Of a DNA stretch of 24,842 nucleotides, positions 4,616 to 23,376 are shown piece after piece. The position numbers and the translations under genes were made by a program. The number at the start of each line of letters is the position of its first letter. Within the stretch, counting starts at the first letter, position 1. This DNA comes from Candidatus Caldarchaeum sp. (GTDB taxonomy: Archaea; Thermoproteota; Nitrososphaeria_A; Caldarchaeales; Caldarchaeaceae), in assembly GCA_038844785.1 (NCBI GenBank), contig JAWBRA010000025.1, forward strand, positions 1 through 24,842, written 5' to 3'. The notes under the pieces were generated by a model, which saw nothing but the letters and a program-made list of their open reading frames with translations, ran no database searches and was not told the DNA's origin.

Positions 4616-4640
4616 CGGGGCTGTTGGGTTTTCACAGCTG

Positions 4641-6031: not shown

Positions 6032-6281
6032 AACCCTTTCAGCAACCGTCATGGAGCCGGGTTCAACCCGGAACATCGACGTAAGCACATGGCGTACATC
6101 CAAGCCTGTGATAAACTATGAAAACTGCACCAACTGCCTCATCTGCTGGATATACTGCCCCGAGCCAGCCATCCTAGTTGACTCTTCTGGAAAAGTAGCC
6201 ATCGACTACGTGCACTGCAAGGGATGCGGGATATGCGCCGCCGAATGCCCTAGAAAAGCCATAGCTATGGAGGTGGAGTAG
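6018..6281 (+). CDS. porD: Pyruvate/2-oxoacid:ferredoxin oxidoreductase delta subunit (2x[4Fe-4S])
   Basis: EPGS...WRTSKPVI, CTNCLICWIYCP, CKGCGICAAECP. Start set at TTG 6018 after GAGGTG (ATG 6051 is an alternative). Confidence 0.9.
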   Translation: MRRSETLSATVMEPGSTRNIDVSTWRTSKPVINYENCTNCLICWIYCPEPAILVDSSGKVAIDYVHCKGCGICAAECPRKAIAMEVE

Positions 6282-7460: not shown

Positions 7461-8383
7461 AACCGGTGCAAAGGCTTGACGAGCTTGTTGGAAGAGAGCT
7501 GATAAGCCCGGGCCACAGCGCTTGCGCGGGATGCGGCGCCATGATAGCTGTCCGCCAGATACTTCTCGCCGCACCCACGCCTCTCATAGTAGTCAACGCC
7601 ACAGGATGTGTGGAAGTGGTTACTACACAGATACCTTACACTGCTTGGAACACCCCATACATACACGTAGCCTTTGAGAACGCTGCAGCTGTTGCGTCTG
7701 GCGTTGAAGCAGCGTTAGACATCCTCGAGAGCAAGGGTCTTGGGCGGAGGCATAACATCCTCGTCATAGCAGGCGATGGCGGAACAGCTGACATAGGGCT
7801 TCAAGCCCTGTCGGGAGCTTTTGAAAGAGGCCACCGTTTCCTCTACGTGTGCTACGATAACGAGGCTTACATGAACACTGGGATTCAGCGGAGTTCACTC
7901 ACCCCGCTCGGTGCTTGGTCGAGGACGACGCCTAAGGGAAAGCTCGAGGAGAAGAAAGACCTCGTAGCAATCGCGGTAGCACACAACATCCCCTACGCAG
8001 CCACCGCCACAATATTCTTCTGGAAAGACCTTGTGAACAAGGTCAGGAAGGCTTTCACCTTCAACGGCCCCTCGTTCATCCACGTCTACGCACCCTGCAA
8101 CAGAGGCTGGTACTTCAACCCTGAAGAAACAATCAAGCTCTCGAAGCTGGCTGTCGAGACGAGATACTTTCCTTTGTACGAGGTTGTAGAAGGCGTCTAC
8201 AGGATAAACTATTTCGTCGCAAACCCGAAGCCTCTCGAAGAGTTTCTAAGACCGCAGGGAAGGTTCCAGCATCTCCTCAAGCCTGAGAACCAGCATCTCC
8301 TCCAAATGCTCAAAGAACACGTCAACAAAAGATGGGAGGCTCTCGTGCGTCTGTCGCAGGTTTCGGCGAAGCCTAAAGCCTAG
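7457..8383 (+). CDS. porB: Pyruvate/2-oxoacid:ferredoxin oxidoreductase beta subunit (TPP)
   Basis: GHSACAGCG, NATGC, GDGGTADIG, YDNEAYMNTGIQRS, APC. Confidence 0.95.
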   Translation: MKPVQRLDELVGRELISPGHSACAGCGAMIAVRQILLAAPTPLIVVNATGCVEVVTTQIPYTAWNTPYIHVAFENAAAVASGVEAALDILESKGLGRRHNILVIAGDGGTADIGLQALSGAFERGHRFLYVCYDNEAYMNTGIQRSSLTPLGAWSRTTPKGKLEEKKDLVAIAVAHNIPYAATATIFFWKDLVNKVRKAFTFNGPSFIHVYAPCNRGWYFNPEETIKLSKLAVETRYFPLYEVVEGVYRINYFVANPKPLEEFLRPQGRFQHLLKPENQHLLQMLKEHVNKRWEALVRLSQVSAKPKA

Positions 8384-8718
8384 TCTGCGGCCATCGTGCT
8401 CTCGACGTTAAACTCCACATCTGTCTGCGAAACGCCAGCGTGAACCCTGTGGCCAACATGATACACTAGCTCATCCCTGTACATGTATTCTCTGCAGTTT
8501 TCACACCAGTAAAACTCCACCCCGGGAATTCCAGTCACGCTGAACTCGGCCAGCCCAAAGAATTCGCAGGGTGTTTCATCGCCGAACCTGACCCTGTCAT
8601 AGTTTAGGCTGGCGGGGTTTGAGCATGTCCCAACACTCCTAAGTAATGGGTAGGGGAGGAAGTGTATACAGTCGCGGCATTGGAAGCTTTTTCCAGCCAC
8701 GGTTCTATAAATGTTCAC
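8380..8718 (-). CDS. Small Cys/His-rich putative metal-binding protein
   Basis: CRDC..F...GTC...PCEFF and CENC...H..H clusters. Its stop overlaps the porB stop (CTAG). Confidence 0.7.
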   Translation of the reverse strand: MNIYRTVAGKSFQCRDCIHFLPYPLLRSVGTCSNPASLNYDRVRFGDETPCEFFGLAEFSVTGIPGVEFYWCENCREYMYRDELVYHVGHRVHAGVSQTDVEFNVESTMAAD

Positions 8719-8734
8719 GCCGGCTATAATTCTA

Positions 8735-9835
8735 TCAGTTTGTTAGATTATTTCCAATATTGTTCCTAGTCCTAAATTCGAAGGACGGCAAACCCATCCT
8801 TATGCCGCACAGCTCGTCCAGCTTCCTCAAAAGACCTACCAGCCTCTCGTCTTTCATCAACATCTCCACGCTTCTCACAAGCCTGAACGTTGTGAGAAGC
8901 TTTCGCAGCAGCCTCGGCCCAAAAGGCGTAAGCCTGAGCGACTTGTAGAGAAAGGCTTTCTCCTCGCTGGTTAACTCTCTGCCGTAGTTCTCCTTGAAGT
9001 AAGTCTCCATTTCGACGAGGAGATGCTGCAGACATTTCTCCTCGCTGCTGTAGCCGTAGAAACAGTTGCGGCAGTTGGGTGAGAAAACCTCCCTCATAGG
9101 TCCTTGCAGGCTTCTCCTGCTGTAGCTCACCCTCACTATCTGGTTGGCTTTCTTAAGCCTCTGAACTATTTTGTAAACCGCTCCTATGCTCAGCCCGTAG
9201 GACCTTACCTTCAGGAATATGTCTTCGACGGAGGCGTATGTTTCGGCGCAGAGAGACGCCATAACCAGCTCCTCGCTCCAGGTAGGTATGTTCCTTACCA
9301 AGTGTTCTAAGGCTTCTGAGAAATGCTTCCGCCCAGCCTTCAGCGTCTCGGAGTCCACCAGCTTTTCACCGTTCAAAAGCCTGGCTAAAACCTCTCTACA
9401 TTTAGCCGGGTCCAAGCCGCTTAACTCCGCAACCATGCTGAGCGGTGTGTTCCCCCATCCTTTCGCATGCGCTACGTACAAAGCAGACCAGACAATACGA
9501 ACCTCTTCATCCTTCCAGCTCCTCCTGACAAGCCATAGGAAGTTTCGAAAGGCTTTGAAGCACTCGCTTCTCTGGATAAGGTATGATGGGGGAGCTGTTT
9601 TATGCTTCTTCAGCCCCAGCATCTGTACGAGGTTATCAAGAACAAGCTCTGCTTCAGAACGTTCGGGCAGCAGGAGAAGCTTTTCATCAAACTCTTCAAC
9701 TCTGTAAAGAGGTGATTGGATAAATTTGTCCTCACTCCACGCCGACGGCGGGGAGGACGTCAGAAGAGCCATCAGCAAGTCAGCTTGGGCGGTGCTGACC
9801 ACGTTAATATGTAGTCTTGGCTCGGATTTATGCAT
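8735..9835 (-). CDS. Putative tandem winged-HTH regulator with a CxxC-x9-C motif
   Basis: HTH-like TPLSMVAELSGLDPAKCREVLARL and SVEDI...GLSIGAVYKIVQRLKKANQIVRV, followed by CRNCFYGYSSEEKC. Divergent from the kor-hdr operon. Start moved to ATG 9835; function is inferred. Confidence 0.6.
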   Translation of the reverse strand: MHKSEPRLHINVVSTAQADLLMALLTSSPPSAWSEDKFIQSPLYRVEEFDEKLLLLPERSEAELVLDNLVQMLGLKKHKTAPPSYLIQRSECFKAFRNFLWLVRRSWKDEEVRIVWSALYVAHAKGWGNTPLSMVAELSGLDPAKCREVLARLLNGEKLVDSETLKAGRKHFSEALEHLVRNIPTWSEELVMASLCAETYASVEDIFLKVRSYGLSIGAVYKIVQRLKKANQIVRVSYSRRSLQGPMREVFSPNCRNCFYGYSSEEKCLQHLLVEMETYFKENYGRELTSEEKAFLYKSLRLTPFGPRLLRKLLTTFRLVRSVEMLMKDERLVGLLRKLDELCGIRMGLPSFEFRTRNNIGNNLTN

Positions 9836-9920
9836 TTTTGGACCTGGTACAATATTTAACACGGTATAATAAACACCCAACCATTAACCGTTTTGAGGAG
9901 CTGTGGGAGGTTTTCAAGCC
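9836..9920. promoter_or_regulatory. Divergent promoter region
   Basis: AT-rich gap with ATATTTAA and TATAATAAA elements between head-to-head genes; SD GGGAGG at 9905-9910. Confidence 0.5.
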
Positions 9921-10184
9921 TTGAAGATTTTACGCGAGCCGATAAACCTTGCACAGTTCCGCAGACCTTTGGGACAGGTTTACATCATCCCCGAGAGATG
10001 TAAGGAATGTAGTTTCTGCTGGACTTTCTGCCCCATGGATGTTTTGATGAGGTCTGACGAGTTCAACTCCAACGGCTACAGGTATCCCAAGGTCAAGCCG
10101 GGGAAAGAAAACGACTGCGTAAACTGTAAGATGTGCAGCCTGATCTGCCCCGAGCTCGCAATCTACACCGTTGAGGTGAGCTGA
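9921..10184 (+). CDS. korD: 2-oxoacid:ferredoxin oxidoreductase delta subunit/ferredoxin
   Basis: CKECSFCWTFCP, FNSNGYRYP, CVNCKMCSLICPELAI. Start TTG 9921 (GTG 9903 is an alternative). Confidence 0.85.
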   Translation: MKILREPINLAQFRRPLGQVYIIPERCKECSFCWTFCPMDVLMRSDEFNSNGYRYPKVKPGKENDCVNCKMCSLICPELAIYTVEVS

Positions 10185-10188
10185 AGAG

Positions 10189-11334
10189 ATGAGCAACGGG
10201 TTGCCTAAGCCAGGCATCCACTTCATGATGGGAAACTTTGCATGCGTCGAAGCCGCCATACTTGCGGGATGCAGGTTCTTCGCCGGATACCCCATCACAC
10301 CCTCCAGCGAGATATTCGAGAGAGCCTGCGTTAGGTTTCCGCAGGTAGGCGGCATAGCGGTTGAGATGGAGGATGAGATGGGGAGCGTAGCCGCTTTAGT
10401 AGGTGCTTCCTACGCGGGCGCTAAGGCGATGACAGCAACCTCAGGGCCTGGGTTTAGCTTGATGATGGAGAACATAGGCCTGGCTTTCATCATGGAGGCT
10501 CCCATAGTCATAGTAAATGTCCAGAGAGCGGGGCCGAGCACGGGAATCCCCACCTTGGTCGGGCAGGGTGACATGATGCAGGCTAAGTGGGGTTCCCACG
10601 GCGACGTCGAGATGGTTGCATACTGTCCCAGCAGCGTCCAAGAGTTCTTCGACCTAACAATCAAAGCATTCAACACAGCAGAACGTTTACGCACACCCGT
10701 CATCGTGCTAGCCGACCAGGTTATTGGGCTGATGTGGGAGAAGCTGAGAATCCCCCACCCCGAGGAGGTTGAGGTTGTAGAGAGAAAAGTAATGGACAAA
10801 TCATATCTCTCCAACAAGCTTCCGTTCGACTATTCTGAGGATGTAAACCCGATGCCGTTGGCTGGGACGGGATGCAGGGTCAACATCGACAGCCTCACCC
10901 ACGACGAGAGAGGCTACCCCACGACAAGCCACGACGCCTCCGACAAAATGATAAGATATCTTCTCAACAAGATTCGTAACCATGCGCGTGAGCTTTGGCT
11001 TTACAAAGAGTTCATGACAGACGACGCGGAGGTCGTGGTGGTTGCTTACGGGTCTGTGGCGAGGTCTGCTCTAAACGCCGTCAAGCAAGCCCGCTCACGC
11101 GGGATAAGGGCTGGGTTTCTCCAGCTCATCACGGCATGGCCCTTCCCAACAGACGTAATCGAGAAAATCAGCCAACGAGCCCACACGCTTGTAGTTCCCG
11201 AGATAAACTTCGGCCAGCTCGTACATCCAATCAAGGAGTATGCAAAATGTCCTGTAATCGAGGTTAACTGGGCGCCCGGCTCCCTCATAGAGCCCAGCGT
11301 AATCCTTGATGCTGTGGAGGTGGCTGCGGCGTGA
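10189..11334 (+). CDS. korA: 2-oxoglutarate-type 2-oxoacid:ferredoxin oxidoreductase alpha subunit
   Basis: FFAGYPITPSSE, MEDEMGS, TATSGPGFSLM, VQRAGPSTGIPT, WGSHGD. Confidence 0.93.
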   Translation: MSNGLPKPGIHFMMGNFACVEAAILAGCRFFAGYPITPSSEIFERACVRFPQVGGIAVEMEDEMGSVAALVGASYAGAKAMTATSGPGFSLMMENIGLAFIMEAPIVIVNVQRAGPSTGIPTLVGQGDMMQAKWGSHGDVEMVAYCPSSVQEFFDLTIKAFNTAERLRTPVIVLADQVIGLMWEKLRIPHPEEVEVVERKVMDKSYLSNKLPFDYSEDVNPMPLAGTGCRVNIDSLTHDERGYPTTSHDASDKMIRYLLNKIRNHARELWLYKEFMTDDAEVVVVAYGSVARSALNAVKQARSRGIRAGFLQLITAWPFPTDVIEKISQRAHTLVVPEINFGQLVHPIKEYAKCPVIEVNWAPGSLIEPSVILDAVEVAAA

Positions 11335-12185
11335 CGCAGGTTATAACTGTTCAGAGGCATCCGCGGGACAGGCTTCTCAGGTATGAGAGGCTTCCCCACA
11401 TCTGGTGTCCCGGCTGCGGGATAGGCATAGTCATGGCGGCTTACGCGGAGGCGATCGAGGCTTCGGGAATTCCGCCCGAGAAACATGTCTGCATCTCCGG
11501 GATAGGGTGTACAGGGCGTGTTGCTGGCTACATGAACCTCGACTCATACCATACAACGCACGGGAGGCCCATTGCGTTCGCCACAGGCCTTTCCCTCGTC
11601 AAGCCCGACTTGGAGGTGACCGTCATCTCGGGCGACGGCGACATCTGCACCATAGGCGGAAACCATCTCATTCACGCGGCACGGAGAAACGTGGACATCA
11701 ACGTGATAATGGTGAACAACTTCAACTATGGGATGACGGGTGGCCAGCACGGCGGAACAACCCCGCTCGGAGCAAAGACATACACAACACCCTACGGAAA
11801 CATCGAAACACCTTTCAACATCCCATATCTTCTAGCCGCCGCAGGCGCCTCGTTCGTCGCCAGATGGACAACACTCCACGTAAGACAGCTAATCAACGCG
11901 ATCAAACACATGATGACTGTCGAAGGCTTCGCATTCATAGAGGTTATATCCCCGTGCCCGCCAACTTTCGGAGAGTTCAACAAATTCCCCGAAGCGGTCG
12001 ACATGATGGAATACTTTAGGAAACACTGTGTGATAGACCACAACGCCGACCTCAGCAAAATAGGCATAGAGTTGAAGGGTGAGCCGCTGGTTGTGGGGAA
12101 CTTCGTAGACAGGAGAAGGCCGAGCTATCAAGAGCTTGTCCAGCAGCTCATAAGCAGAGCCATGGAAGGAGGTGGGGAAGTTTGA
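11331..12185 (+). CDS. korB: 2-oxoglutarate-type oxidoreductase beta subunit
   Basis: HIWCPGCG, SGIGC, HTTHGR, GDGD...IGGNH, YGMTGGQ, SPCP. Confidence 0.93.
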   Translation: MTQVITVQRHPRDRLLRYERLPHIWCPGCGIGIVMAAYAEAIEASGIPPEKHVCISGIGCTGRVAGYMNLDSYHTTHGRPIAFATGLSLVKPDLEVTVISGDGDICTIGGNHLIHAARRNVDINVIMVNNFNYGMTGGQHGGTTPLGAKTYTTPYGNIETPFNIPYLLAAAGASFVARWTTLHVRQLINAIKHMMTVEGFAFIEVISPCPPTFGEFNKFPEAVDMMEYFRKHCVIDHNADLSKIGIELKGEPLVVGNFVDRRRPSYQELVQQLISRAMEGGGEV

Positions 12186-12736
12186 GGTATGAGGTTAGGA
12201 TAACTGGTCTCGGCGGGCAGGGTGCGATAACCGCTGGACACATCCTCGGAAGAGCTGCCGTGATATACGACGGCAGAGAAGCCGTCGTCACAGAAGGATA
12301 CAGCCCATACATAACAGGCGGCTGGTCGAGGGCGGATGTGATAATCTCCGACGAGCCGATAGACTACCCGCTAATGACGAAACTCGACGTCTTAGCCACC
12401 ATGTACGATGATGGGTTTGTCCAGAACATCAAGTATGTCAAACGCAACGGAATCGTGGTCACGGAGAAAGAGCTCGTCAAACACACATTCCACAGAGATG
12501 TTCGAATAATACCTATTCCTGCGATACAGGTGGCCGACAGCTTGGGCAGGAGAGTTGTCATGAACATCGTGATTCTCGGCGCTGTTGTGGCTGCTCTTGG
12601 AGGAGTGCCGTCGCTCGAGTCTGTTGCGAAGGCTTTGGCTGACCGTTTCCCCAAAGCCGCTGAGCTCAACCGCAAAGCCCTCCACGAAGGCTACAGCATA
12701 GCCTGCGAGCATTTGACGGCTAAGGAGGTGGTGTGA
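12182..12736 (+). CDS. korC: 2-oxoglutarate-type oxidoreductase gamma subunit
   Basis: EVRITGLGGQG, GGWSRADVIISDEPIDYP, NIVILGA. Confidence 0.9.
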   Translation: MRYEVRITGLGGQGAITAGHILGRAAVIYDGREAVVTEGYSPYITGGWSRADVIISDEPIDYPLMTKLDVLATMYDDGFVQNIKYVKRNGIVVTEKELVKHTFHRDVRIIPIPAIQVADSLGRRVVMNIVILGAVVAALGGVPSLESVAKALADRFPKAAELNRKALHEGYSIACEHLTAKEVV

Positions 12737-15700
12737 AAATGGCTGACGCGGTTCTCGTGATCGGCGGCGGCATAGCCGGGGTTCAGGCATCGCTCGACCT
12801 CGCCAAAGCCGGTGCGAAAGTCTACCTCGTGGAGAAAAGCCCCGTGATAGGCGGGAGGATGGCTGCTCTCGACAAAAACTTCCCCACGATGGACTGCTCC
12901 ATCTGTATGCCTGGAGACACCGATATAATACTCGGCGACGGCTCAATAGTTCCTATTCGGGACCTAGTTGAGAGGTTCGAGCATGGAGATTTCAACCCCC
13001 ATCCACCTGAAACATTTTCTTTTGACGGAAACACGGTTAGTTTACGTCCTATAGTGGCTGGACAAAAGCTACCCTACTCCTACAACCTCATCGAGATAAC
13101 TACTGCGACAGGAGGTAGGCTTCGCTTTACTCCCGACCATAAGATACTTGTCGACGATGAAAATGGCCCGGCTTGGAGAGAAGCCAGTAAACTTAGGGTC
13201 GGTGACATGCTCTATGCCCCGCGGAAGCTTGGCCCCAAAAAATCGCAGCCTCGCTACGTAATAGACCTTTTACCAAAAGAGTTCATTGTAGTTGACGACG
13301 ACATCAACAATCGCGTCAGGAAAGAACTTAAGAAGAAATTCGGAAGCCTCACTAAAGCGGCGGTGAAACTCAGTTTAAAGCGCGGCCATCTAGACAGTAG
13401 ACGTGGGCTCTCAATAAGCGAGCTAGAAAGAGTAGCCGAAGCCCTTGGCTTTAGCTGGGAAAATCTTAAGGTAAGGGTCAAAAGCATCACGTATCAGGGG
13501 GCCCACGGACCGGTTAGGCTACGCAAAACACGCATTGATGAAGACATGGCTTACCTACTGGGTCTCTTGGCGGCAGACGGCAGCTTATCCAGAAAAGAGA
13601 TAAAGTTCTATAACACGAACAAGAGTTTGATCAGGATATACGTAAAGATTTATCGCAGGCTCTTCCCAGGGAAGCGGTGTTGGATAAATGTCCAGACAGG
13701 AGGGGGGAAGAGATGGAAGAAAAGGATGGCTGTGAGATGCAAGAATAGAGTTTTGCTCAGCATTGCGCAGAAGCTTGACATAGGAGGCGGTCTTAAACCT
13801 CTCTTCCCGCTTGATGAGAAAATTGTGAGCAGCTTCCTAAGAGGATACTTTGATGGGGATGGGACGGTAAAGATAACTAGGTGGAGAGGCTGGTCGTCCT
13901 TCAAGATCACCTTCAACTTAGGTAAAGACCGTTATGAACATGCAAAGGGCTTACAGCTTCTCCTTAAGAGACTGGGCATCATCAGCAAACTTTACACGTA
14001 TGAGGACAGGGTTCTGCTGGATATATCAGAAAGGGAGGATGTGGCGAGGTTCTCATCTATAGTACGCTCGAATCATCCTTTTAAGCGGCGTAGGCTGCTG
14101 GAGGCGAATAAGGCCTCTAAGCTTCCAAGGAAAATGGGAGGCCTCTTTGAGCAGCTCCCGCTGGAGTGCGGGCGGCTGATCCGGTTTTTGATGGATAGGT
14201 ACAGAATACCCCTTAAAAGGCTCCCTTTGAGTCGCTCAAATCTTCTACGAGTAACGAGACAGGAATGCAGAATAACTAGGGTTAACCTTCGTCGTGTAAT
14301 AAATGTCCTGAGACGCTATGTTAGACCTGATGACAAGGATTTCATAAAGCTTAACCAACTATGTAATTCTAGCTTCTTCCTAGACCAGGTAAAGGAAGTA
14401 AAGGTCGTTCCCTCAAAGGAGGATTATGTATATGATATAACGGTTGATGGTGTCCATAACTTCATTCCGGAAGGCATTTTCACCGTAAGTAACTGTATAG
14501 AGGCGCCGAAGCTGAGCGAGGTCATGCAGAGCAGGAACATCAAGGTCCTGACGTTGAGCGATGTTGTAGAGGTTAGCGGAGGTCCTGGAAACTTCCGAGT
14601 CAAGGTTCGTCAGAGACCTCGTTACGTCACAGACGAGTGTACCAGATGCGGGGACTGTGTGCCCGCATGTCCTGTCATATTGAAGAACGAGTTTGACGTG
14701 GGCATGGGTGCGAGGAAAGCCATCTACCTACCGTTCGACCAAGCAGAGCCGGGAGCATACGTCATAGACATTGAAAACTGTTTGAACAAGCCTCCCAACT
14801 ACCTTCCATGCAACAGATGTGTTGAGGCATGCGGGCCTAAATGCATAGACTTTGAGATGAAGGAAAAAACCCACGAGCTTGAGGTTGGAGCCATCATAGT
14901 TGCAGCCGGCTCAGACCTGTTCGACGCCTCCCTCATCCCCGAGTTCAGCTACGGCAGACATCCAGACATTCTGACCGCGATGGAGCTGGAGAGGCTGCTG
15001 CAGTCGAGCGGGCCCTCGAGAGGCGAGGTGATAAAGCCCAGCGACCACCAACATCCAGAAAAAGTCGCCTTCATCCTCTGCGTGGGAGCACGTGACAAAA
15101 GGTTCTACAGCTTCTGCAGCAGGGTCTGCTGCATGTACAGCATCAAAGAAGCCCTGCAGCTGGTTGACCATGGAATCAAAAACGTCACCGTCTTCTACAT
15201 GGACATAAGAGCTTACGGGAAAGGCTTTGACGAGATGTTTGAGAGGGCGAGAAACAGCGGCGTCAGGTTTGTGCGAAGCAGGCCGGGAAGGATAATCCCC
15301 AACGGCCACGGCATAGATGTCTTCTACGAGGACACTACGTCAGGAGAGCTGAGACGTGAAACGTTTGACATGGTTGTTCTCTCAACAGCCCTCACACCTT
15401 CGGAGGAGCTGAGAAAGCTGGCTGACACGCTGGGGATAGAGGTTGGAGAAGACGGTTTCATAAAGTCCTACGAGGTTGACGGCGACTTCGTCGGAACTTC
15501 GAGGGAGGGCATATACGTATGCGGCTGTGCAAGCGGCCCCAAAGACATCCCCGACAGCGTCACCGAGGCAGGGGCTGCAGCCGCAAAAGCGCTCACACAT
15601 CTCACCGCGAAAAGCCTCGAGCCTGAAGTCTACGAGGAAACGATAGACCCTTCAGGAGAGCCGAGAGTAGGTGTTTTCATCTGCCACTGCGGCTCCAACA

Positions 15701-17697
15701 TAGCCGGAGTCGTCGACATAAAAGCAGCCGCCGAACAGGCGAGGAAGCTACCCTACGTCGCCTACGTGGACGACCAGAAGTTCTCATGCTCAGGCGCTGG
15801 AACAAAGTATATCGAGAACGTGATAAGGGAGAAGAAGCTTAACAGGGTTGTTGTCGCCGCCTGCTCGCCTAAAACACACAGCCCAACCTTCATGAGAGCC
15901 TGCGCACGCGCCGGCCTCAACCCATACCTCTTCGAGATGGCCAACATACGCAACCTCAACTCATGGGTTCACAAAAACCAGCCCGCTGAAGCGACGGAGA
16001 AAGCGGTGGACCTTATAGGGATGGCCGTCAGAAAAGTGGCCCTACAAACCCCGTTGACCAAGCTGAAGTCAAACGTCGTGCAAAAGGCCTTGGTAATAGG
16101 AGGCGGCGTGGCAGGCATGACCGCAGCCACGGTCTTGGCGAACATGGGCTTCGAAACACATCTCGTCGAAAAAGAGAGGCAGCTGGGCGGGCTTCTCAGA
16201 TACTTGAAAGAGATAGCGCCTTCAGGGTTGGATGCTCAACGCTTCCTCCGCTGGAAGATGATGCAGCTGGAGAGGTCTGGTGCGAAAATCCATCTTGGCA
16301 CCGAGGTGACTTCGGTGACAGGGTTTGTGGGCAACTATCATGTCACGCTCTCCAACGGTGAAGAGCTTGACGTAGGCGCTGTGATAATTGCGACAGGTGG
16401 GAAACCCCATGAACCCAGCTGGCCCGGCACAGCAGCGAACGGCATGCATGTTACGACGCTGATGAACTACGAGCTGGAAGGAGTGCCCGACAACGCGCGG
16501 AACATAGCTTTCGTGGGATGCGTTGGCTCACGCAACCAGAACAGAGGCTGCTCAAGATACTGCTGCCAAACCATCATCTACCACGCCCTCAAGCTCAGGA
16601 GAGCCGGCAAAAACGTCTCAGTCTTCGTCAAAGACGTTAGGACGTACAGCAGGGGTGCTGAAGAGCTTTACAGAAAGGCCTGCGAGGAGGGGGTGAGGTT
16701 TATCAGGGTAGGTCAAGAGAAGCCGATAGAGGAGCTGGTTCAGATAGGTGACGGGAGTCTGACCGCTTACGACATCGTTTCAGGCGAGACGGTAAGCATA
16801 CCCGCCGACTATGTTGTCTTAGCGACCGCGCTAGACCCGCCGGCGGAGATAACAGCAGCGCAGCATCTCCGAGTCGCCAAAGACTCGGAAGGATTCTTCC
16901 TCGAGCTCCATCCAAAGCTGGGGCCTGTCGAATCCATAACGGGCGGAGTGTTCCTCGCAGGGGTTGCCCAAGGGCCGAAGGACGTGAGGGAGAGCGTGTC
17001 GCAGGGCTTGGCGGCCGCCGCTAAAGCCGCAGCGCTTCTTTCGTCTCCACAGCTTGAGAAAGAACCCTTCATCCCCGTCATCAACACGCAGAGATGCACT
17101 AAATGCATGCGATGCGCCGAGGTCTGTCCATACGGAGCAATCAAAGGCGAGAGGGGGAAGTGGATAGAGGTTGTGCCAGGGCTGTGCGAGGGATGTGGAG
17201 CTTGCGTCGCCGAATGCAACGTCGAAGGCGCGATAACGATGCCAGGCTTCACAGACGAGCAGATAATAGCCCAGATAGACGCAGCCCTAGCCGAGAACCC
17301 GCAGGACAAAGTGATAGTCTTCGCATGCAACTGGTGCAGCTACGCGGGAGCAGACCTCGCAGGCATCCTCAAGATACAGTACCCAGCCTCAAACAGGGTC
17401 ATACGCACGATGTGTTCGGCGAGGGTTTCGCAGAAGTTCATCCTCCACGCCTTCGAGAAAGGAGCTGGAGCCGTGTTCGTCACAGGCTGCTGGCCACAGG
17501 ACTGCCACTACAACTACGCCAACCTCAACACAAAGAAACGCTACGAACGCTGGCTGAGAATCATACAAGCCCGTAAGATAGACCCGAAGAGATTGCAGCT
17601 GCACTGGATAAGCGCGGCCGAGGCGAAGAGGTTTGCTGAGAAGATGAACGAGGCCCATCAGGTGGTGATGAGCTTGAAGAAAGAGGTGAGCGGCTAA
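12733..17697 (+). CDS. hdrA: Intein-containing tandem HdrA-like flavo-Fe/S protein fused to an MvhD-like domain (1654-aa precursor, ~1124 aa spliced)
   Basis: Two FAD Rossmann motifs (GGGIAG, GGGVAG), DKNFPTMDC, ferredoxin motifs, CSRVCC/CSRYCC and an HdrA N-domain (GVFICHCG...ACSP...MANIR) in the middle. The C-terminus is MvhD-like (FACNWCSYAGAD...MCSARV...GCWPQDCHY). Confidence 0.93.
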   Translation: MKMADAVLVIGGGIAGVQASLDLAKAGAKVYLVEKSPVIGGRMAALDKNFPTMDCSICMPGDTDIILGDGSIVPIRDLVERFEHGDFNPHPPETFSFDGNTVSLRPIVAGQKLPYSYNLIEITTATGGRLRFTPDHKILVDDENGPAWREASKLRVGDMLYAPRKLGPKKSQPRYVIDLLPKEFIVVDDDINNRVRKELKKKFGSLTKAAVKLSLKRGHLDSRRGLSISELERVAEALGFSWENLKVRVKSITYQGAHGPVRLRKTRIDEDMAYLLGLLAADGSLSRKEIKFYNTNKSLIRIYVKIYRRLFPGKRCWINVQTGGGKRWKKRMAVRCKNRVLLSIAQKLDIGGGLKPLFPLDEKIVSSFLRGYFDGDGTVKITRWRGWSSFKITFNLGKDRYEHAKGLQLLLKRLGIISKLYTYEDRVLLDISEREDVARFSSIVRSNHPFKRRRLLEANKASKLPRKMGGLFEQLPLECGRLIRFLMDRYRIPLKRLPLSRSNLLRVTRQECRITRVNLRRVINVLRRYVRPDDKDFIKLNQLCNSSFFLDQVKEVKVVPSKEDYVYDITVDGVHNFIPEGIFTVSNCIEAPKLSEVMQSRNIKVLTLSDVVEVSGGPGNFRVKVRQRPRYVTDECTRCGDCVPACPVILKNEFDVGMGARKAIYLPFDQAEPGAYVIDIENCLNKPPNYLPCNRCVEACGPKCIDFEMKEKTHELEVGAIIVAAGSDLFDASLIPEFSYGRHPDILTAMELERLLQSSGPSRGEVIKPSDHQHPEKVAFILCVGARDKRFYSFCSRVCCMYSIKEALQLVDHGIKNVTVFYMDIRAYGKGFDEMFERARNSGVRFVRSRPGRIIPNGHGIDVFYEDTTSGELRRETFDMVVLSTALTPSEELRKLADTLGIEVGEDGFIKSYEVDGDFVGTSREGIYVCGCASGPKDIPDSVTEAGAAAAKALTHLTAKSLEPEVYEETIDPSGEPRVGVFICHCGSNIAGVVDIKAAAEQARKLPYVAYVDDQKFSCSGAGTKYIENVIREKKLNRVVVAACSPKTHSPTFMRACARAGLNPYLFEMANIRNLNSWVHKNQPAEATEKAVDLIGMAVRKVALQTPLTKLKSNVVQKALVIGGGVAGMTAATVLANMGFETHLVEKERQLGGLLRYLKEIAPSGLDAQRFLRWKMMQLERSGAKIHLGTEVTSVTGFVGNYHVTLSNGEELDVGAVIIATGGKPHEPSWPGTAANGMHVTTLMNYELEGVPDNARNIAFVGCVGSRNQNRGCSRYCCQTIIYHALKLRRAGKNVSVFVKDVRTYSRGAEELYRKACEEGVRFIRVGQEKPIEELVQIGDGSLTAYDIVSGETVSIPADYVVLATALDPPAEITAAQHLRVAKDSEGFFLELHPKLGPVESITGGVFLAGVAQGPKDVRESVSQGLAAAAKAAALLSSPQLEKEPFIPVINTQRCTKCMRCAEVCPYGAIKGERGKWIEVVPGLCEGCGACVAECNVEGAITMPGFTDEQIIAQIDAALAENPQDKVIVFACNWCSYAGADLAGILKIQYPASNRVIRTMCSARVSQKFILHAFEKGAGAVFVTGCWPQDCHYNYANLNTKKRYERWLRIIQARKIDPKRLQLHWISAAEAKRFAEKMNEAHQVVMSLKKEVSG
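12904..14493 (+). mobile_element. 530-aa intein with LAGLIDADG homing endonuclease
   Basis: Block A CMPGDTDI, block B LRFTPDHKIL, LAGLIDADG motifs YLLGLLAADG and FLRGYFDGDG, block F/G YVYDITV...HNF...VSN followed by +1 Cys. Removal restores DCSI-CIEAPK. Confidence 0.95.
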
Positions 17698-17698
17698 A

Positions 17699-18838
17699 AT
17701 GATGCCTGCCTACGAGGAGCTCCTCAACGACAAATCGCTGTCTGAAAGCATAAACGCATGCTTCCAGTGTGGAGCATGCACAGCGGCATGCCCGCTCAAC
17801 ATGTTCAACGGTGTAAGACTAAGCCCTCGGCAGATGCTTAGACGGATGCAGCTGGGTCTTCCCACAAACATCGACCCATACCTCTGCATGATGTGCAGGG
17901 CGTGCGAAGCTGTTTGCCCGAGAGGCGTTAAGGTTTCAGAGGTAATCACCGCGTTGAGGAAAATCTGGTTCAAGCAAAACAGAACCCCCGCACCGCTCAC
18001 GCAGGCCCTTTGGAGGGTCTATGAAGAAGGCAACCCATGGGGATATTCCTCCCGCCTGAGAGGACGCTGGCTAGACGGCCTTAACGCAAACATAGCAGGG
18101 AGAAAGAGCGAAACACTCCTATACATCGGATGCATATCATCCTACGACATACGTCTCCAGCGAATAGCCAAGGCCGTAGCCCAGCTGTTGCTCAAAGCTG
18201 GAGTTGACTTCACGGTTCTAGGCCAGGAGGAGAGATGCTGTGGAGACTCGATCTATAACACAGGCGAGACAGACTTTCTCGAAGAACTCGTACAGGAAAA
18301 CATCGGCAAATTCAACGCATACGGCGTCAAGAGAATCATCGCAATCTCACCCCACTGCCTGAGAATGTTCCGCGACATATACCCGCGATACGGCGGGGAA
18401 TACGAAGCACTACATTATACAGAGTTTCTCACCGAACTCCTCGACAGCGGCCGGCTAGTCGTCAACGCCAGCCTTATCGTTAAAGCAACCTACCACGACC
18501 CCTGCTACCTCGGCAGGTACATGAAGATATACGAGCAGCCGAGAAAGCTCATAGAAAACGTCAAAGGACTGTCGTTCGAGGAGATGAAGCTGTCGAAGGA
18601 GCTGGCCCTCTGCTGCGGCGGTGGAGGAGGCCGTATACTGATGGAGTCCAAGCCTGAGGAAAGGCCGTCAAACCTAAGGGTGAGACAGGCTGCGGAGACG
18701 GGTGCGGAAATCCTTGTGACAACATGCCCCTACTGCATAGTAAACTTCGAAGACTCGGCGAAGATCCAGAGAACACCCGTAAAGGTGATGGATTTGGCTG
18801 AGCTTCTCTACGGGGCGGCGGGCGGTCAGCTTGGGTGA
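17699..18838 (+). CDS. HdrD/GlpC-like Fe-S oxidoreductase (2x[4Fe-4S] plus 2 CCG domains)
   Basis: CFQCGACTAACP, CMMCRACEAVCP, GNPWG, ERCCG...SPHC, YHDPC...CCGGGGG...TCPYC. Confidence 0.9.
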   Translation: MMPAYEELLNDKSLSESINACFQCGACTAACPLNMFNGVRLSPRQMLRRMQLGLPTNIDPYLCMMCRACEAVCPRGVKVSEVITALRKIWFKQNRTPAPLTQALWRVYEEGNPWGYSSRLRGRWLDGLNANIAGRKSETLLYIGCISSYDIRLQRIAKAVAQLLLKAGVDFTVLGQEERCCGDSIYNTGETDFLEELVQENIGKFNAYGVKRIIAISPHCLRMFRDIYPRYGGEYEALHYTEFLTELLDSGRLVVNASLIVKATYHDPCYLGRYMKIYEQPRKLIENVKGLSFEEMKLSKELALCCGGGGGRILMESKPEERPSNLRVRQAAETGAEILVTTCPYCIVNFEDSAKIQRTPVKVMDLAELLYGAAGGQLG

Positions 18839-19805
18839 GATATGGACCTTCGTGGAGATAGGGCCTGAAGGCGTTGAAGACGTCTCGCTGGAGATAATGG
18901 GGAAGGCCGCTACGCTGGCGGCTGAAAGCGGTAGGAAGACAGCTGCGGTCGTTACAGGCTGGAAGGTAGATGAAATCGTCCAAGAGGCCGCGAAATACCC
19001 CGTCGACAAAGTCTTCTACGTAGAACACAGCTCGCTCGCCACATACGACCCTTCTAAACACGCCAAAGCCCTACACCAGCTAGTCGAGAAAGAAAAACCT
19101 GAGATGATATTCTTCGGAGCAACCTACACGGGGGCCGACATAGCCTCACGTCTCGCCGTAAGGACTGGGGCAGGCCTGATAGCCCATGTAACATACCTCG
19201 GCATAGACCCCGTCGACGGAAGGCTTGTCGGCCACGTTCCAGGCTTCGGAGGAAGCATCGTAGCCGTCTGCAAATGCAGGCCAAACACCCTGCAGATAGC
19301 CACAGTCAGGCCGGGCGTCTTCGAGAAACCCAAAACAACCAACAAAACAGCGGAAGTTGTAAAATTCACTCCAGGACTCGACCCAGCTGAACCGGGGTGG
19401 ATAGTCCTCGACAGAAAGGTTGCGAAAACGGTTGACGTCACGAGAGCTGAGAAAGTTGTTGTAGCAGGCATGGGGACTGGCGGAGACCTGACGTTAGTCA
19501 AAAAGCTTGCCGACAGGCTGGGGGCTCAGCTGGCTGTGACAAGACCGCTTGCAGACATCGGCGTAGCTCCGAGAGACGTTCAGGTCGGTTCGACAGGAAT
19601 AAGCTTGAGGTCAAAAGCCGCTCTAGTCCTCGGCGTCAGCGGAGCATCACATTTCGTCTCAGGCATCCAAGACGTAAAAACAGTAATCTCAGTCAACACC
19701 GACAGAAACGCCCCGATATTCCAGTTCTCCGACTACTGTGTTCAAGCCGACCTGTTCAAAATCGTTCCAAAGCTCATCGAACACGCTGGGAGGGGAGGTG
19801 GATAG
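18831..19805 (+). CDS. etfA: Electron transfer flavoprotein alpha subunit
   Basis: PGFGG, ATVRPG, TRP..D, QVGSTG, GVSGA, NTDRNAPIF..SDY...DL. Confidence 0.9.
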   Translation: MGEIWTFVEIGPEGVEDVSLEIMGKAATLAAESGRKTAAVVTGWKVDEIVQEAAKYPVDKVFYVEHSSLATYDPSKHAKALHQLVEKEKPEMIFFGATYTGADIASRLAVRTGAGLIAHVTYLGIDPVDGRLVGHVPGFGGSIVAVCKCRPNTLQIATVRPGVFEKPKTTNKTAEVVKFTPGLDPAEPGWIVLDRKVAKTVDVTRAEKVVVAGMGTGGDLTLVKKLADRLGAQLAVTRPLADIGVAPRDVQVGSTGISLRSKAALVLGVSGASHFVSGIQDVKTVISVNTDRNAPIFQFSDYCVQADLFKIVPKLIEHAGRGGG

Positions 19806-19806
19806 G

Positions 19807-20592
19807 TTGAACATAGTTGTCTGCGTCAAAGTCGTTCCCAAAGTTGACCAAGTCAGGTTCGACCCTGTCACGAAAACTGTTGACAGAACGTCGGCTGAGA
19901 ACGAGCTCAACGAAGCTGATAAAAACGCCTTGGAGACGGCGTTGCAGCTCAAAGAGAAACATGGTGGGAAGGTTGCTGTTGTGTCTATGGGGCCGCCTTT
20001 CTTCGAACCCTTCCTCAAAATATGTGTGGCCATGGGAGCTGACGACGCGGTTCTTTTGTCCGACAAAGCCTTCGCAGGAGCCGACACCTACGCCACATCA
20101 TACGTGCTAGCCCAAGCGGTAAAGAAGCTGAAACCCGACCTCGTGCTATGCGGTGAAAGCACGTCGGACTCCGGAACAGCTCAGGTCCCGGCCCAGATGG
20201 CTGAATGGCTTAGATACCCAAACATCTCCTACGCGTCAAACGTAAGCGTTGACAACGGGTTCGTCGTGGCCAGACGTACCGTGAAAGGAGGGTATGAGGT
20301 TGTAAAAGCCCCTCTGCCAGCCGTGGTGTCTGTGGAGCTGGGCTCCAACACGCCGAGGTTTCCCGACTTCAAGAGGAAGAGATGGGCTGAAAGAGAGTTC
20401 AAAACAACCGTCTGGACATCCGCAGACCTCGAGCTCGACCTCTCCCTCGCAGGAAGGGCTGGGTCGAAGACCGATGTTGTGGAGCTTCAGTCCATAGCTC
20501 CGCCGCAGAGGCTTAGAAAGTTCTTGGAAGGCTCCGAAGACGAGATAGCCCAGACCATACTGAAGATAATCAAGGAAGCCGTCACGGAATAG
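19807..20592 (+). CDS. etfB: Electron transfer flavoprotein beta subunit
   Basis: NIVVCVKVVP, SMGPP, DKAFAGADTYATS, DSGTAQVP, NTPRFP. Start TTG 19807 (or GTG 19798) rather than the track's 19738. Confidence 0.92.
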   Translation: MNIVVCVKVVPKVDQVRFDPVTKTVDRTSAENELNEADKNALETALQLKEKHGGKVAVVSMGPPFFEPFLKICVAMGADDAVLLSDKAFAGADTYATSYVLAQAVKKLKPDLVLCGESTSDSGTAQVPAQMAEWLRYPNISYASNVSVDNGFVVARRTVKGGYEVVKAPLPAVVSVELGSNTPRFPDFKRKRWAEREFKTTVWTSADLELDLSLAGRAGSKTDVVELQSIAPPQRLRKFLEGSEDEIAQTILKIIKEAVTE

Positions 20593-20745
20593 CTACCTCA
20601 TACTACGCACAGCAACCCCCGTAAGCCTGTCCAACAACACATACCTTCCCGTCAGCGCGTCAAAGAGCTGTGAAAGCTCTTTCCCCCTGTCGTAGAGGTC
20701 TCTCCGGTCGGTTTTAGGCCCTGGCGAGAAGACGTCAGGTAACAC
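20593..20745 (-). pseudogene. Internally deleted archaeal ATPase remnant (50 aa)
   Basis: Manual translation VLPDVFSPGPKTDRRDLYDRGKELSQLFDALTGRYVLLDRLTGVAVRSMR*. The first part resembles the archaeal ATPase N-terminus (F.P.PK....DL(F/Y)DRE.EL) and the last part its C-terminal wing (G.Y...D); no Walker motifs. Confidence 0.6.
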
Positions 20746-20924
20746 CCCTGTTACCTACTATTATGCCTTCCTAACCGAACACTTGCAGAATTCCATAAAT
20801 TTAGGACAGCGGACAACACCCGTAAGAATCATTCAAGCTCATTTTGTCCACCTAACAACTCTTGAATTTTTGTTAGATGGATTAAACCATATTTTCGCAC
20901 AACTTCGTAAAACTGTAGCTCATG

Positions 20925-21938
20925 TTAGTCAAGGTACGGTTTAATGTCATCGACTACGATATATTCTGTACGTATCCTGTATCTGGTTTCTTCTAACGTG
21001 TTCAACAAAAGGTCAATAACTCCTCGAATTCGCTCTTCGTTTATATCAAGGATGCTAGCGATTTGTTCTGCGTGGGCTGTATTGTGAGGGATTATTGGTT
21101 CTAACTCAAACGGGTAGAAAGGCAAAGTGTTTAATTGTGTTCTATATTCCATTCTCTCGATGATTTGTGTGGTGAGTTTCTTGCCGGGCAACTGCCATAA
21201 TAGTGATATGGTTTGATAATAGCACAAAGCTAGGTTTACGTAAGCTTCGTATAATTGTCCAATGGTCGTGTTTATGGTATTTTTGTGCTTGTCGTAATAC
21301 GTCATCAATAATTTCCAAATGCTTCCGCAAATAAGAAGCGGTTACGGAATTGACATACTGATAATAGATAATCTTGATTAAACGTCCAACTTCGCCTATG
21401 TAATACTTGTCTGATTTTCCTAAACGATATTTTGGTCTCAGGTTTGACACTGAAATTCTTCATATTTTCCAACCCTTCGAGCACTATGTGAAAGCCCTGC
21501 TAAAGTTAGATTGGTAGGCCCATAATACTTCCCATGGTGAAAAATTCTTTCCGACGAACAAGCATGGAAAATATAACGAACTTAGCATGGTTAAGAAATT
21601 GCCCAGAGGGTAGAATGTAACCACATAACAGCTGCTCCGAAGAGAATTAAGCGCATGCCGTTGCAAGTCTCTGATTTTGCCCCAAAAGTAGTCAGGCGCG
21701 TTCGTACTTATTAGGCATATTACGTTACGGAGTGATAAATGAACCATGTTTGTAAGTCATTCTATCAAATTTGCATTATAATGAATTACTGATGGTGAAA
21801 TATTGAGAGTCGATATATAGAAAACTGCAGTAAAACATGTCCTAGCCTATGGCAAAAATTTATTCTTGTTTCTGTTCTATCAAACATGTTCCATAAATTT
21901 TCCAAAGTGTTATTGCTTTGAGGCTGCTTGATGAGCAC
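20925..21938 (-). pseudogene. AT-rich degraded gene(s) of unknown family
   Basis: Visibly AT-richer than the flanks. A run of same-strand ORF pieces (21786-21938, 21484-21747, 21142-21450, 20925-21308) is broken by stops and frameshifts. TTTTATATAA at 21961-21970 precedes GTG 21938. Confidence 0.45.
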
Positions 21939-22071
21939 GATGGTAGCTAACGGAGGAAAGTTATATAAAATTTCTACATGAGTTAAACAGCAGTTTCCAT
22001 CTCGTTCGTTTCCTAGGCGGCCGTGCCTCCAGTAACCACTTTTAACCGACTTCATGTGTCTATGGTGGGTT

Positions 22072-22764
22072 ATGGAGTGTTTTGTGGGGACTTCGGGCTG
22101 GTTTTATTCGTGGAACCCCGACGGAAGCCTCGACTGGTTCGTCAAAAACTCTGGTCTTAACGCTGTCGAGCTCAACATGAGCTTCTACCGCTTCCCCTTC
22201 CCAAGCATGGTTCGCTCGTGGGCTGTGAAGGGCGGTGGGCTGAGATGGAGCGTAAAAGCCAGCAGGTTGATAACCCACAACTATAAGTTCGGCGGGAAAG
22301 CTGAAAACCTTTGGGAAAAATTCAGAAAACTTTTCACACCGTTGGAGCAGCGGATAGATTTCTACCTCTTCCAGCTCCCTCCCACCATGACGCCCAAACA
22401 CCTGCCCGTCATCACAGCCTTCATCGAGAAAACAGGGCTAGGCCGCCGCTTCGCCCTCGAACCCCGCAACATCAAATGGTTCGACAAAACCGTCATCGAG
22501 AAAATCTCCACGCATCAAGCTACGTGGGTGAGCATAGACTCCCCCGACCATCCCCTCGACATCTACAACACAAACGGCATCGTCTACCTGCGGATGCACG
22601 GAAGAACAGCATGGTACTCCCACCACTACACCGACGAAGAACTCATCGAGGTCGTCGAAAAGATACACGTAGCAAAACCTGAGAAACTCTACGTGTTTTT
22701 CAACAACAACCATGCGATGCTCGCCAACGCCCGTAGGATGCTTGAGCTGTTGTCAGGGGTTTAG
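22072..22764 (+). CDS. DUF72 (YecE-like TIM barrel) protein
   Basis: VGTSGW.Y, VELNMSFYRFP, VKASRLITH, LFQLPP, ALEPR, YLRMHG, VFFNN. Confidence 0.92.
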   Translation: MECFVGTSGWFYSWNPDGSLDWFVKNSGLNAVELNMSFYRFPFPSMVRSWAVKGGGLRWSVKASRLITHNYKFGGKAENLWEKFRKLFTPLEQRIDFYLFQLPPTMTPKHLPVITAFIEKTGLGRRFALEPRNIKWFDKTVIEKISTHQATWVSIDSPDHPLDIYNTNGIVYLRMHGRTAWYSHHYTDEELIEVVEKIHVAKPEKLYVFFNNNHAMLANARRMLELLSGV

Positions 22765-23376
22765 GCCGAGTTTTGTGAGGATTTTTGTCCAGTCGAGTCT
22801 TGTCAGAAGGTAGACAGCCGCCAAGGCTGCGGCTGCCGTCGCCACCGCTATAAGGGTTACGTTGAGTATGTTGACTTCGCCGACTATGCATTCGACGATG
22901 TAGCATGCAAGGTCTCTCCAGTAAAGTGAAAGGTAGGCGACGGCCGTTGTGATCAACAGCTTTCCCATGAAGACTGTTGGGAGGAAGAGCCTGCTGCTGT
23001 AGTTGGCTAAAGCCAATAGAACGAAGACTACGTCGTCTGGCAGAGGTGTAGCGGCGGCGCCCACAACCGCCAGCCAGCCGTGCTTCGACACAATCCTCTC
23101 CAAAGGCTCCATCCTTCTACGCGTTTCATCGCTCAACAACACACGCCCGCTCTTGAAGAACCGGAAAAGTATCAGCTTGGCTAAAGCAGCTCCAGCCGCG
23201 CTAGACAAAGCCGTGGGAAGAGGCTCAAGCCGTCCAGCCATCACCGCTATTATTATCGGCGGGATGTAGGGGCCTGAGACGAAGGGGAGAAGGCTTCCCA
23301 AAAGGCTGGCTCCGAAAACGCCCGCATACCCGTAAGCCGTCAGACCGTTCCAGAAATCAGCAGAGAAGAAATCCAT
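22753..23376 (-). CDS. VTT/DedA (SNARE-associated) family membrane protein
   Basis: YGYAGVF.ASLLGS.LPF...PY, AATPLPDD, F..TVFMGK. Confidence 0.85.
   Translation of the reverse strand: MDFFSADFWNGLTAYGYAGVFGASLLGSLLPFVSGPYIPPIIIAVMAGRLEPLPTALSSAAGAALAKLILFRFFKSGRVLLSDETRRRMEPLERIVSKHGWLAVVGAAATPLPDDVVFVLLALANYSSRLFLPTVFMGKLLITTAVAYLSLYWRDLACYIVECIVGEVNILNVTLIAVATAAAALAAVYLLTRLDWTKILTKLGLNP

Follow-up and report, generated by a model that had tools for sequence, protein, structure and literature searches.

The stretch of DNA considered here (the window) comprises 24,842 nucleotides (nt) of Candidatus Caldarchaeum sp. (assembly GCA_038844785.1, contig JAWBRA010000025.1). At positions 9921–20592 it carries an operon of eight plus-strand genes encoding a four-subunit 2-oxoacid oxidoreductase (Kor), a fused flavoprotein of the HdrA type, an HdrD-type iron-sulfur protein and an electron-transferring flavoprotein (Etf). 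The genes are tightly packed, with gaps of 1–4 nt or overlaps of 4–8 nt, just as an earlier note on this stretch had described them. Gene names (korD, korA, korB, korC, an HdrA-type gene with FlpD/MvhD, a gene for a Fer4-CCG protein, etfA and etfB) were taken from Pfam and NCBIfam. First comes korD (9921–10184), encoding a delta subunit with two [4Fe-4S] clusters, followed after a 4-nt gap by korA (10189–11334), the alpha subunit of a 2-oxoacid:acceptor oxidoreductase, which scores above the NF006412 cut-off. The thiamine pyrophosphate-binding beta subunit (korB, 11331–12185), the gamma subunit (korC, 12182–12736) and hdrA (12733–17697) are joined to korA and to each other by three consecutive 4-nt overlaps (korA/korB, korB/korC and korC/hdrA). 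The hdrA product, an HdrA-HdrA-ferredoxin-MvhD fusion resembling BamE/BamF, is a precursor of 1654 amino acids (aa), or about 1124 aa once an intein has been spliced out. One nt further on lies hdrD (17699–18838), which etfA (18831–19805) overlaps by 8 nt; etfB (19807–20592, with an alternative GTG start at 19798) begins after a 1-nt gap. Since no product has more than one weak hydrophobic segment, a complex formed by them would be soluble. A scan for sigma-70 promoters and terminators gave matches at chance level only, with a model that is unsuited to archaea.

In its spliced form, HdrA consists of a flavin adenine dinucleotide (FAD) domain with an inserted ferredoxin, an HdrA N-terminal-type domain, a second FAD domain, a C-terminal ferredoxin and MvhD. 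The inserted ferredoxin domain (approximately 14614–14868, plus strand) would be the low-potential outlet, whereas the fused MvhD [2Fe-2S] domain (PF02662; 17311–17676, plus strand), in which five Cys are retained, would be the input port. Lys275 of FAD domain 1 (spliced numbering; 15145–15147, plus strand) aligns with the bifurcation Lys of methanogen HdrA and lies five residues past the Cys-Cys of the FAD-proximal cluster, and the redox-active CxxC is formed by C55 and C58 (spliced). All of the hallmarks of a bifurcating HdrA are found here: the Lys at FAD N5, the adjacent [4Fe-4S] cluster, the CxxC, the inserted ferredoxin and MvhD. The Lys is present in 32/32 HdrA rows; counted by domain, it occurs in FAD domain 1 of 26/26 family rows and at the equivalent site of domain 2 in 5 of the 25 family rows read, a distribution that fits one bifurcating and one structural FAD. 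FAD domain 2 retains its Fe-S cluster. Mean column conservation is 0.74 for MvhD and 0.67 for the C-terminal ferredoxin, on par with the rest of HdrA. These features support an HdrA-type bifurcation center, and in this respect the sequence bears out the earlier note. A structural model of HdrA from an intein-free relative (mean predicted local distance difference test, pLDDT, 86; predicted template-modeling score 0.89) is confident except around the CxxC and matches solved HdrA structures. The inserted ferredoxin domain also carries a nine-residue Pro-rich loop that is specific to the family, being present in 35/35 Kor-linked rows, which are kin and partly duplicated, and in 0/26 unrelated HdrA rows. 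In two of the loci (L034, 9233–12846, and L071, 6524–9950), the HdrA gene reads as two open reading frames (ORFs), through either a real break or an assembly error.

How widespread is this arrangement? The synteny search that had been proposed for it was made in two ways, which overlap, so that the counts are not additive. When 61 genomes of the order Caldarchaeales were surveyed with HdrD as the query, and a carrier was defined as a genome with a close orthologue inside the same gene run, the operon was present in 15, 12 of them with all eight genes in full and 3 with a run that stops at a contig end. One further genome (G021) has only an hdrD remnant (L045, 6857–7144) where its close relatives have the whole operon, which makes it a deletion scar. 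A scan of the GTDB representatives gave 467 confirmed loci, of which the best 80 were analyzed. The whole run is found in order in 18 of them: 17 pass fixed identity thresholds, and L066 was added with a korC of 32% identity. A further 13 fit the pattern but are truncated at the end of a contig or flank, and the remaining 49 have a relative of HdrD in a different gene context. The complete runs come from Caldarchaeales, other Nitrososphaerota, Bathyarchaeia, Thermoplasmata, a Desulfurococcaceae archaeon, records labelled Halobacteriales, and Anaerolineae (Chloroflexota). In a tree of the first HdrA half (29 rows), all 11 Kor-linked rows form one clade (100/100). The gene order, its conservation and the motifs described here are direct observations: the order, which is invariant across phyla, is not due to chance, and the operon is one conserved unit.

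HdrD is a fusion of HdrC- and HdrB-type parts with no predicted membrane segment. The description "without HdrBC" given earlier holds for separate genes in the operon; it fails in that HdrD is itself such a fusion and that an hdrC/hdrB/hdrA cluster sits on contig C6. The C6 genes (L129, 3534–9695) are sHdr-like and are accompanied by a lipoate-protein ligase and a QmoC-like gene. HdrD has two cubane clusters and two CCG domains, of which one has His and five Cys in 31/31 operon rows and the other is short of one Cys or more in each of them. In the first CCG domain, the first Cys of the CxxC is replaced by Ser in every row, and further Cys are lost in several. The enzymes that reduce the CoM-S-S-CoB heterodisulfide (HdrABC and HdrDE) have two intact, five-Cys non-cubane clusters. 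With the distal CCG cluster degenerate in 31/31 rows, identity as a heterodisulfide reductase was rejected, and the disulfide or sulfur partner once suggested for the complex loses its footing. The same kind of disrupted distal cluster is found in BamD, which binds ETF and not a heterodisulfide (bioRxiv 10.64898/2026.04.10.717634). HdrD is best described as a soluble, BamD-like protein that presumably docks Etf, a contact proposed by analogy. It was also considered as an ETF:(methyl)menaquinone oxidoreductase (EMO/EtfD) and rejected, as it has no fused membrane cytochrome b domain. A separate EMO-like protein of 671 aa with predicted membrane segments is encoded on contig C14, and an EMO-like CCG protein of 669–708 aa is found in 13/15 carriers.

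By sequence, the nearest kin of EtfA and EtfB are bifurcating Etfs of the Car/Bcd/Lct type. Bifurcating Etfs are defined by a DGDTAQVGP motif in EtfB and an alpha-Arg in EtfA that contacts the beta-FAD (PMC9232219). The motif is found in 0/31 operon rows, and the alpha-Arg site is occupied by Val or Thr in 31/31, so that a bifurcating EtfAB was rejected, and the suggestion that Etf was a second bifurcating module or the NAD (nicotinamide adenine dinucleotide) site is unsupported. Canonical, AMP-binding ETFs have a bulky residue at the Gly123 site (PMC12630350). In the operon Etf this residue is small (Ser, Ala or Gly), and beta-FAD is not sterically excluded; the beta site may hold either AMP or an inert FAD. 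The genome encodes two other Etfs, one adjoining the EMO-like membrane protein and the other a FixCX-like gene, so that the operon Etf looks dedicated. It might be argued that the operon simply encodes co-regulated but separate enzymes, since gene order by itself is no proof of a complex, or that it encodes a heterodisulfide, sulfur or NAD-linked reductase, given the kinship to Car/Bcd/Lct-type Etfs and the room left for beta-FAD. Such explanations are very improbable: the order is invariant across phyla, a loop and a tail (below) are specific to the family, a controlled fold joins Kor to HdrA, and the degenerate CCG cluster speaks against a disulfide reductase.

Which 2-oxoacid does Kor use? 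KorB has an Arg at the site of beta-Arg63 in M. marinus 2-oxoglutarate:ferredoxin oxidoreductase (OGOR), a residue that we take to select 2-oxoglutarate, and this Arg is present in all 32 operon KorB rows read by pattern. The site was placed by alignment to PDB 6N2N and 8YS5; the Sulfolobus enzyme has Lys there. The best solved relative of KorB is OorB of a D-A-B-C enzyme (PDB 8YS5), and KorB scores below the NF007207 cut-off. The host's other, two-subunit 2-oxoacid:ferredoxin oxidoreductase (OFOR) has Lys at the Arg63 site, and it could be the enzyme for the oxidative direction. KorD, whose best PDB matches are FwdF and MvhB, begins with a conserved tail (R-x-P-I/V-N) in which Arg5 and Pro7 are nearly invariant. 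The profile alignment of H. pylori OorD starts no earlier than position 20, so that the solved OorD lacks a tail of this type.

The tail is predicted to bind HdrA. In a complex prediction run with three controls, HdrA residues 1–908 (a construct that ends before the C-terminal ferredoxin and MvhD) folded with KorD with a score of 0.69, against 0.00 for the best control; the mark used for such scores was attained by 116/157 solved complexes and by 2/215 mismatched pairs. The HdrA-KorD runs agreed in at least 77% of contacts, with a partner pLDDT of at least 83. The contacts run from the tail and the second cluster of KorD to HdrA 112–130, 152–163 and 199–240, which are the inserted ferredoxin and its flank. 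KorD is thus predicted to dock on the inserted ferredoxin domain, the presumed low-potential outlet. In known HdrA systems, electrons enter through the C-terminal ferredoxin and MvhD and the low-potential exit is through the inserted ferredoxin, where FmdF, VhuB and BamC bind (bioRxiv 10.64898/2026.04.10.717634; PMC13518236). The earlier proposal that reduced ferredoxin from 2-oxoacid oxidation feeds the complex becomes less likely, as the fold puts KorD on the low-potential outlet, in a prediction that did not include the MvhD port. A related wiring has Kor feeding MvhD, directly or via ferredoxin, with reduced Etf and a very low-potential electron as the output, the latter destined for an acceptor encoded elsewhere, such as pyruvate synthase, aldehyde:ferredoxin oxidoreductase (AOR) or benzoyl-CoA reductase (BCR). 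This would account for the absence of another donor, and ferredoxin reduced by 2-oxoglutarate oxidoreductase is a donor of class II BCR (bioRxiv 10.64898/2026.04.10.717634); moreover, genes for a pyruvate-type oxidoreductase (porCDAB) adjoin the operon in 9/15 carriers, and AOR and class I BCR-like genes occur in this genome. It is nevertheless quite improbable, for KorD is confidently predicted at the opposite port and BCR-like genes are present in only 3/15 carriers.

Judged by sequence features, the operon closely resembles the BamDEF-ETF core of class II BCR without BamBC and BamGHI, a likeness to Bam clusters that had been suspected from the start. The Geobacter metallireducens enzyme is a Bam[(BC)2DEFGHI]2 complex (bioRxiv 10.64898/2026.04.10.717634). 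Shared with it, according to the preprint's description, are a fused HdrA dimer of the BamE type with one Lys-bearing, bifurcating FAD (FAD 1), the CxxC relay, the MvhD adaptor, a subunit of the HdrD kind whose distal cluster is disrupted (as in BamD) and a non-bifurcating ETF as the high-potential partner. Even the residues correspond (CxxC 55/58 versus BamE 59/62, Lys275 versus BamE Lys280), with the BamE positions taken from the preprint's description and not from a sequence alignment. In contrast to Bam, MvhD is fused and there is no selenocysteine (Sec); there is no BamB/BamC tungsten module in the operon (the genome's intact AOR is on another contig) and no BamGHI (HydBC/NuoEFG-like) input module, as the PF01512 domain is found in 0/1 own genome and in 1/15 carriers. 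The operon encodes a four-subunit Kor, predicted at the BamC position. With the methanogen supercomplexes (Hdr-Mvh/Vhu/Fdh-Fmd/Fwd; PDB 5ODC, 7BKB, 8RVU; PMC13518236), the operon shares the HdrA fold and clusters and, by prediction, a CO2-fixing enzyme attached to the inserted ferredoxin domain via a ferredoxin-type subunit. With OorDABC (PDB 8YS5) and M. marinus OGOR (PDB 6N2N), it shares the D-A-B-C order of four subunits and the Arg at the beta-63 site, and differs in the additional conserved tail of KorD. In short, the operon product would work like the class II BCR core, yet it is neither a class II BCR nor a heterodisulfide reductase, and it is no bifurcating Etf system either. OorDABC and M. 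marinus OGOR use free ferredoxin or flavodoxin.

We tentatively favor, at a little under an even chance, the reading of the operon product as a bifurcating 2-oxoglutarate synthase, for which the operon's non-bifurcating Etf would be the high-potential sink. Kor(DABC), (HdrA)2/MvhD and HdrD would form one soluble complex, joined by the dedicated Etf, in which Kor would occupy the slot held by BamBC in class II BCR and by Fwd/Fmd in methanogens. A mid- to low-potential donor would deliver electrons via the C-terminal ferredoxin and MvhD to the FAD in the first half of HdrA, and the pair would be split there. The high-potential electron would pass to HdrD, Etf and the quinone pool, perhaps through the ETF:menaquinone oxidoreductase-like protein encoded in the genome, while the low-potential electron would pass through the CxxC and the inserted ferredoxin domain to KorD and drive the reductive carboxylation of succinyl-CoA to 2-oxoglutarate. 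The direction of the reaction and its substrate are here inferred by analogy.

Is such a scheme energetically feasible? Donors of −320 to −500 mV were combined with Etf potentials of +16 to −125 mV, with Kor at an assumed −520 mV; of the 15 combinations, 14 make forward bifurcation exergonic. The same wiring could also run in reverse, as a confurcation: Kor would oxidize 2-oxoglutarate, Etf would deliver high-potential electrons from acyl-CoA dehydrogenases, and the pair would leave through MvhD to an acceptor near the level of NAD or H2. The predicted KorD docking is compatible with this, hydrogenases are present in 6/15 carriers, and acyl-CoA dehydrogenases are found in 15/15 carriers (within about 8 kb of the operon in 4/15, all of one genus) but equally in 8/8 non-carriers tested. 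The reverse direction is feasible only with an acceptor at the NAD level or above and is uphill for every acceptor below about −320 mV; furthermore, the complex has no NAD site, as FAD domain 2 retains its Fe-S cluster and Etf is without the motifs, and no hydrogenase or NuoF/HydB was found in this genome. Confurcation is unlikely on these grounds.

Another possibility is a downhill conduit, that is, a ferredoxin-independent 2-oxoglutarate:Etf oxidoreductase in which Kor electrons cross HdrA and HdrD, reach Etf and enter the respiratory chain, with no energy coupling along the way. The host respires, neither a free ferredoxin nor a partner for MvhD was found in its genome, and in class II BCR electron flow from the low-potential port to ETF has been measured in vitro (bioRxiv 10.64898/2026.04.10.717634). 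A plain wire, however, needs neither a conserved MvhD and C-terminal ferredoxin nor an invariant bifurcation Lys, and about 0.5 V would be wasted, which makes a conduit distinctly less probable than not, and indeed decidedly unlikely.

Several observations weigh against the favored 2-oxoglutarate synthase. The most serious concern the donor: a search of the whole genome, which is 95% complete, gave no NiFe hydrogenase (in accord with the absence of hydrogenase noted earlier for the operon), and one is present in only 6/15 carriers; NuoF/HydB (PF01512) was not found in this genome and is present in 1/15 carriers; and no free small [4Fe-4S] ferredoxin was found in the genome by patterns or Pfam, although small genes can escape a 95%-complete assembly. 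Indeed, none of the partner families tested (NiFe hydrogenase; BCR subunit C-like, in 3/15 carriers; NuoF/HydB; acyl-CoA dehydrogenase) tracks the operon. On the acceptor side, the EMO-like protein is also common in non-carriers. The docking score may reflect likeness to the solved HdrA-FmdF/MvhB complexes, and since the fold omitted the MvhD port, wiring through the opposite port stays compatible with it. The operon is patchy: two other genomes of the genus, each 99% complete, did not yield it, and G021 retains no more than a remnant. Four metatranscriptome runs, compared with positions 5001–23000, establish neither transcription nor co-transcription: coverage of the operon by two contig sets is in short pieces of low depth (26/30 and 13/30 bins), and two raw-read runs gave no reads. 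Finally, the host looks like a heterotrophic, facultative aerobe (heme-copper oxidases, six acyl-CoA dehydrogenases), and in such hosts 2-oxoacids are usually oxidized. The genome also has seven molybdopterin enzymes and at least six OFORs.

HdrA of this genome is interrupted by an intein with a LAGLIDADG endonuclease (12904–14493, plus strand; 530 aa, aa 58–587), which is inserted after Ile57 and ahead of the second Cys in the redox CxxC. It has the features of a class 1 intein: Cys1, a TxxH block (TPDH), a terminal Asn, a +1 Cys, two LAGLIDADG motifs and intein-free alleles in relatives; the penultimate residue is Ser, not His. Judging from this position, splicing is required to restore the CxxC pair, and in methanogen HdrA the corresponding Cys/Sec pair is the site that is split here (PMC13518236). 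Within the operon family the intein is rare, with 2/15 carrier genomes of the order and 1/18 complete named loci. Its GC content is 47%, versus 56% for the exteins, and it is 99.4% identical to a copy in genome G004, where neighboring genes are 96–98% identical. Among the best 7998 candidates (909–2895 aa long) in a search for relatives, 37 proteins were found, and 15 of these were HdrA clusters, all 15 with the intein at the identical CxxC site. The HdrA-site inteins form one clade (100/99) whose members are scattered among several distinct clades of HdrA, a pattern indicating that the element homes into a conserved site. By its sequence relationships, the intein is a recent homing element outside the conserved operon design. 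A phage collection gave no match to it. Relatives of this intein (P0016–P0019, P0022, P0028–P0030, P0033) are found in acetyl-CoA synthase beta subunits, where one intein site likewise lies just before the second CxxC Cys, and in a radical-SAM protein, where the intein precedes a cluster Cys.

The precursor also contains a CxxC, since an extein Cys lies at −3 from Cys1 of the intein. A disulfide "redox trap" is known from the MoaA intein of Pyrococcus abyssi (PMC10663303), which is similar in having an N-extein Cys near Cys1 and an oxygen-sensitive Fe-S enzyme as host. The differences are that the host here is HdrA, that the +1 Cys is a redox Cys of the bifurcation relay, and that conditional splicing is here a candidate property. 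From its patchy distribution, the intein looks like a selfish element first and foremost; redox control of splicing, which the Cys spacing recalls, may be a side effect. In literature searches no report of an HdrA intein or of a CxxC intein site was found; by their titles and abstracts, matches to "intein" and "heterodisulfide reductase" concern other subjects.

What would such an enzyme be for? The supply of electrons low enough in potential for reductive carboxylation is an open question in reverse-TCA (tricarboxylic acid cycle) organisms (PMC10052474). For Caldarchaeales, operation of the oxidative TCA cycle in reverse has been suggested (PMC10547907); this and the citrate synthases encoded in the genome speak for the synthase reading. 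Possibly, and with rather less confidence than we place in the synthase itself, this is a widespread enzyme in which bifurcation is coupled directly to C–C-forming CO2 fixation, possibly fed by the neighboring pyruvate oxidoreductase or a small Cys/His protein instead of free ferredoxin, and with activation in this lineage perhaps gated by a redox-trapped intein. Each module is already known, the core having been solved in class II BCR in 2026; the combination with a four-subunit Kor appears to be the new part. In our literature searches the operon is undescribed, within a scope that excludes subscription papers, the Bam preprint's extended data on BamD homologues and the HdrA review by Appel et al. 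(2021), the latter two being possible listings. The nearest mention, in the excerpts consulted, is one line on an HdrA/MvhD gene cluster in Caldarchaeales metagenome-assembled genomes (PMC10547907). An arrangement reported in bioRxiv 10.1101/390617 was considered as an earlier description and rejected because, as far as the excerpt goes, it differs, and a term search of the main text of a 2026 review of pyruvate:ferredoxin oxidoreductase gave no Hdr partners (PMC13768988). As a compact, Sec-free, thermophilic, eight-gene complex, the system would offer a tractable test of HdrA-type bifurcation with an Etf acceptor. The intein, for its part, gives natural access to the CxxC pair, a pair whose function the Hdr and class II BCR structures have yet to settle.

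Upstream of the operon lies a divergent gene (8735–9802, minus strand) for a winged-helix protein, a candidate redox-sensing regulator in which the helix-turn-helix is followed by three invariant Cys. It is divergently upstream in 13/15 carriers, the other two being cut by contig ends; its matches to winged-helix proteins are weak (best E 8e-4, low template-modeling scores). Next to it is a gene (8380–8718, minus strand) for a small, Cys/His-rich protein of 112 aa and no known family, which is found beside the operon in 8/15 carriers and in three distant loci (L051, L071 and L123). The Atlas gave no named family for either protein. Beyond these is porCDAB (5495–8383, plus strand), a pyruvate-type oxidoreductase and candidate electron source; both it and the small Cys/His protein are candidate donors for the MvhD port.

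Elsewhere in the genome, contig C24 (L127, 6127–16001; L139, 550–8804) carries class I BCR-like genes with AOR and a further OFOR, together with dienoyl-CoA hydratase-, hydroxyacyl-CoA dehydrogenase- and ring-opening hydrolase-like genes, a cluster whose sequences point to possible anaerobic aromatic degradation in Ca. Caldarchaeum. Class I BCR subunit C-like matches occur in 5/61 genomes, all below the family cut-off. Directly after etfB, the window has a low-GC island (20700–22000; 37.5% in 21001–22000) with short ORFs of no known family, and other genes are found there in relatives. At 2789–2906 (plus strand), the sequence looks by eye like a tRNA-Leu(CAA) gene whose D-arm has an insertion of about 30 nt, a non-canonical place for an intron; ARAGORN and Rfam both missed it. 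Just downstream of this tRNA-like element is a TnpB/Cas12f-like ORF of 301 aa (PF07282; 3339–4244, minus strand), probably a truncated IS200/IS605-type element. The window also holds two HEPN/nucleotidyltransferase pairs (1676–2545, minus strand, and 4575–5400, plus strand), one of them fused in a single ORF.

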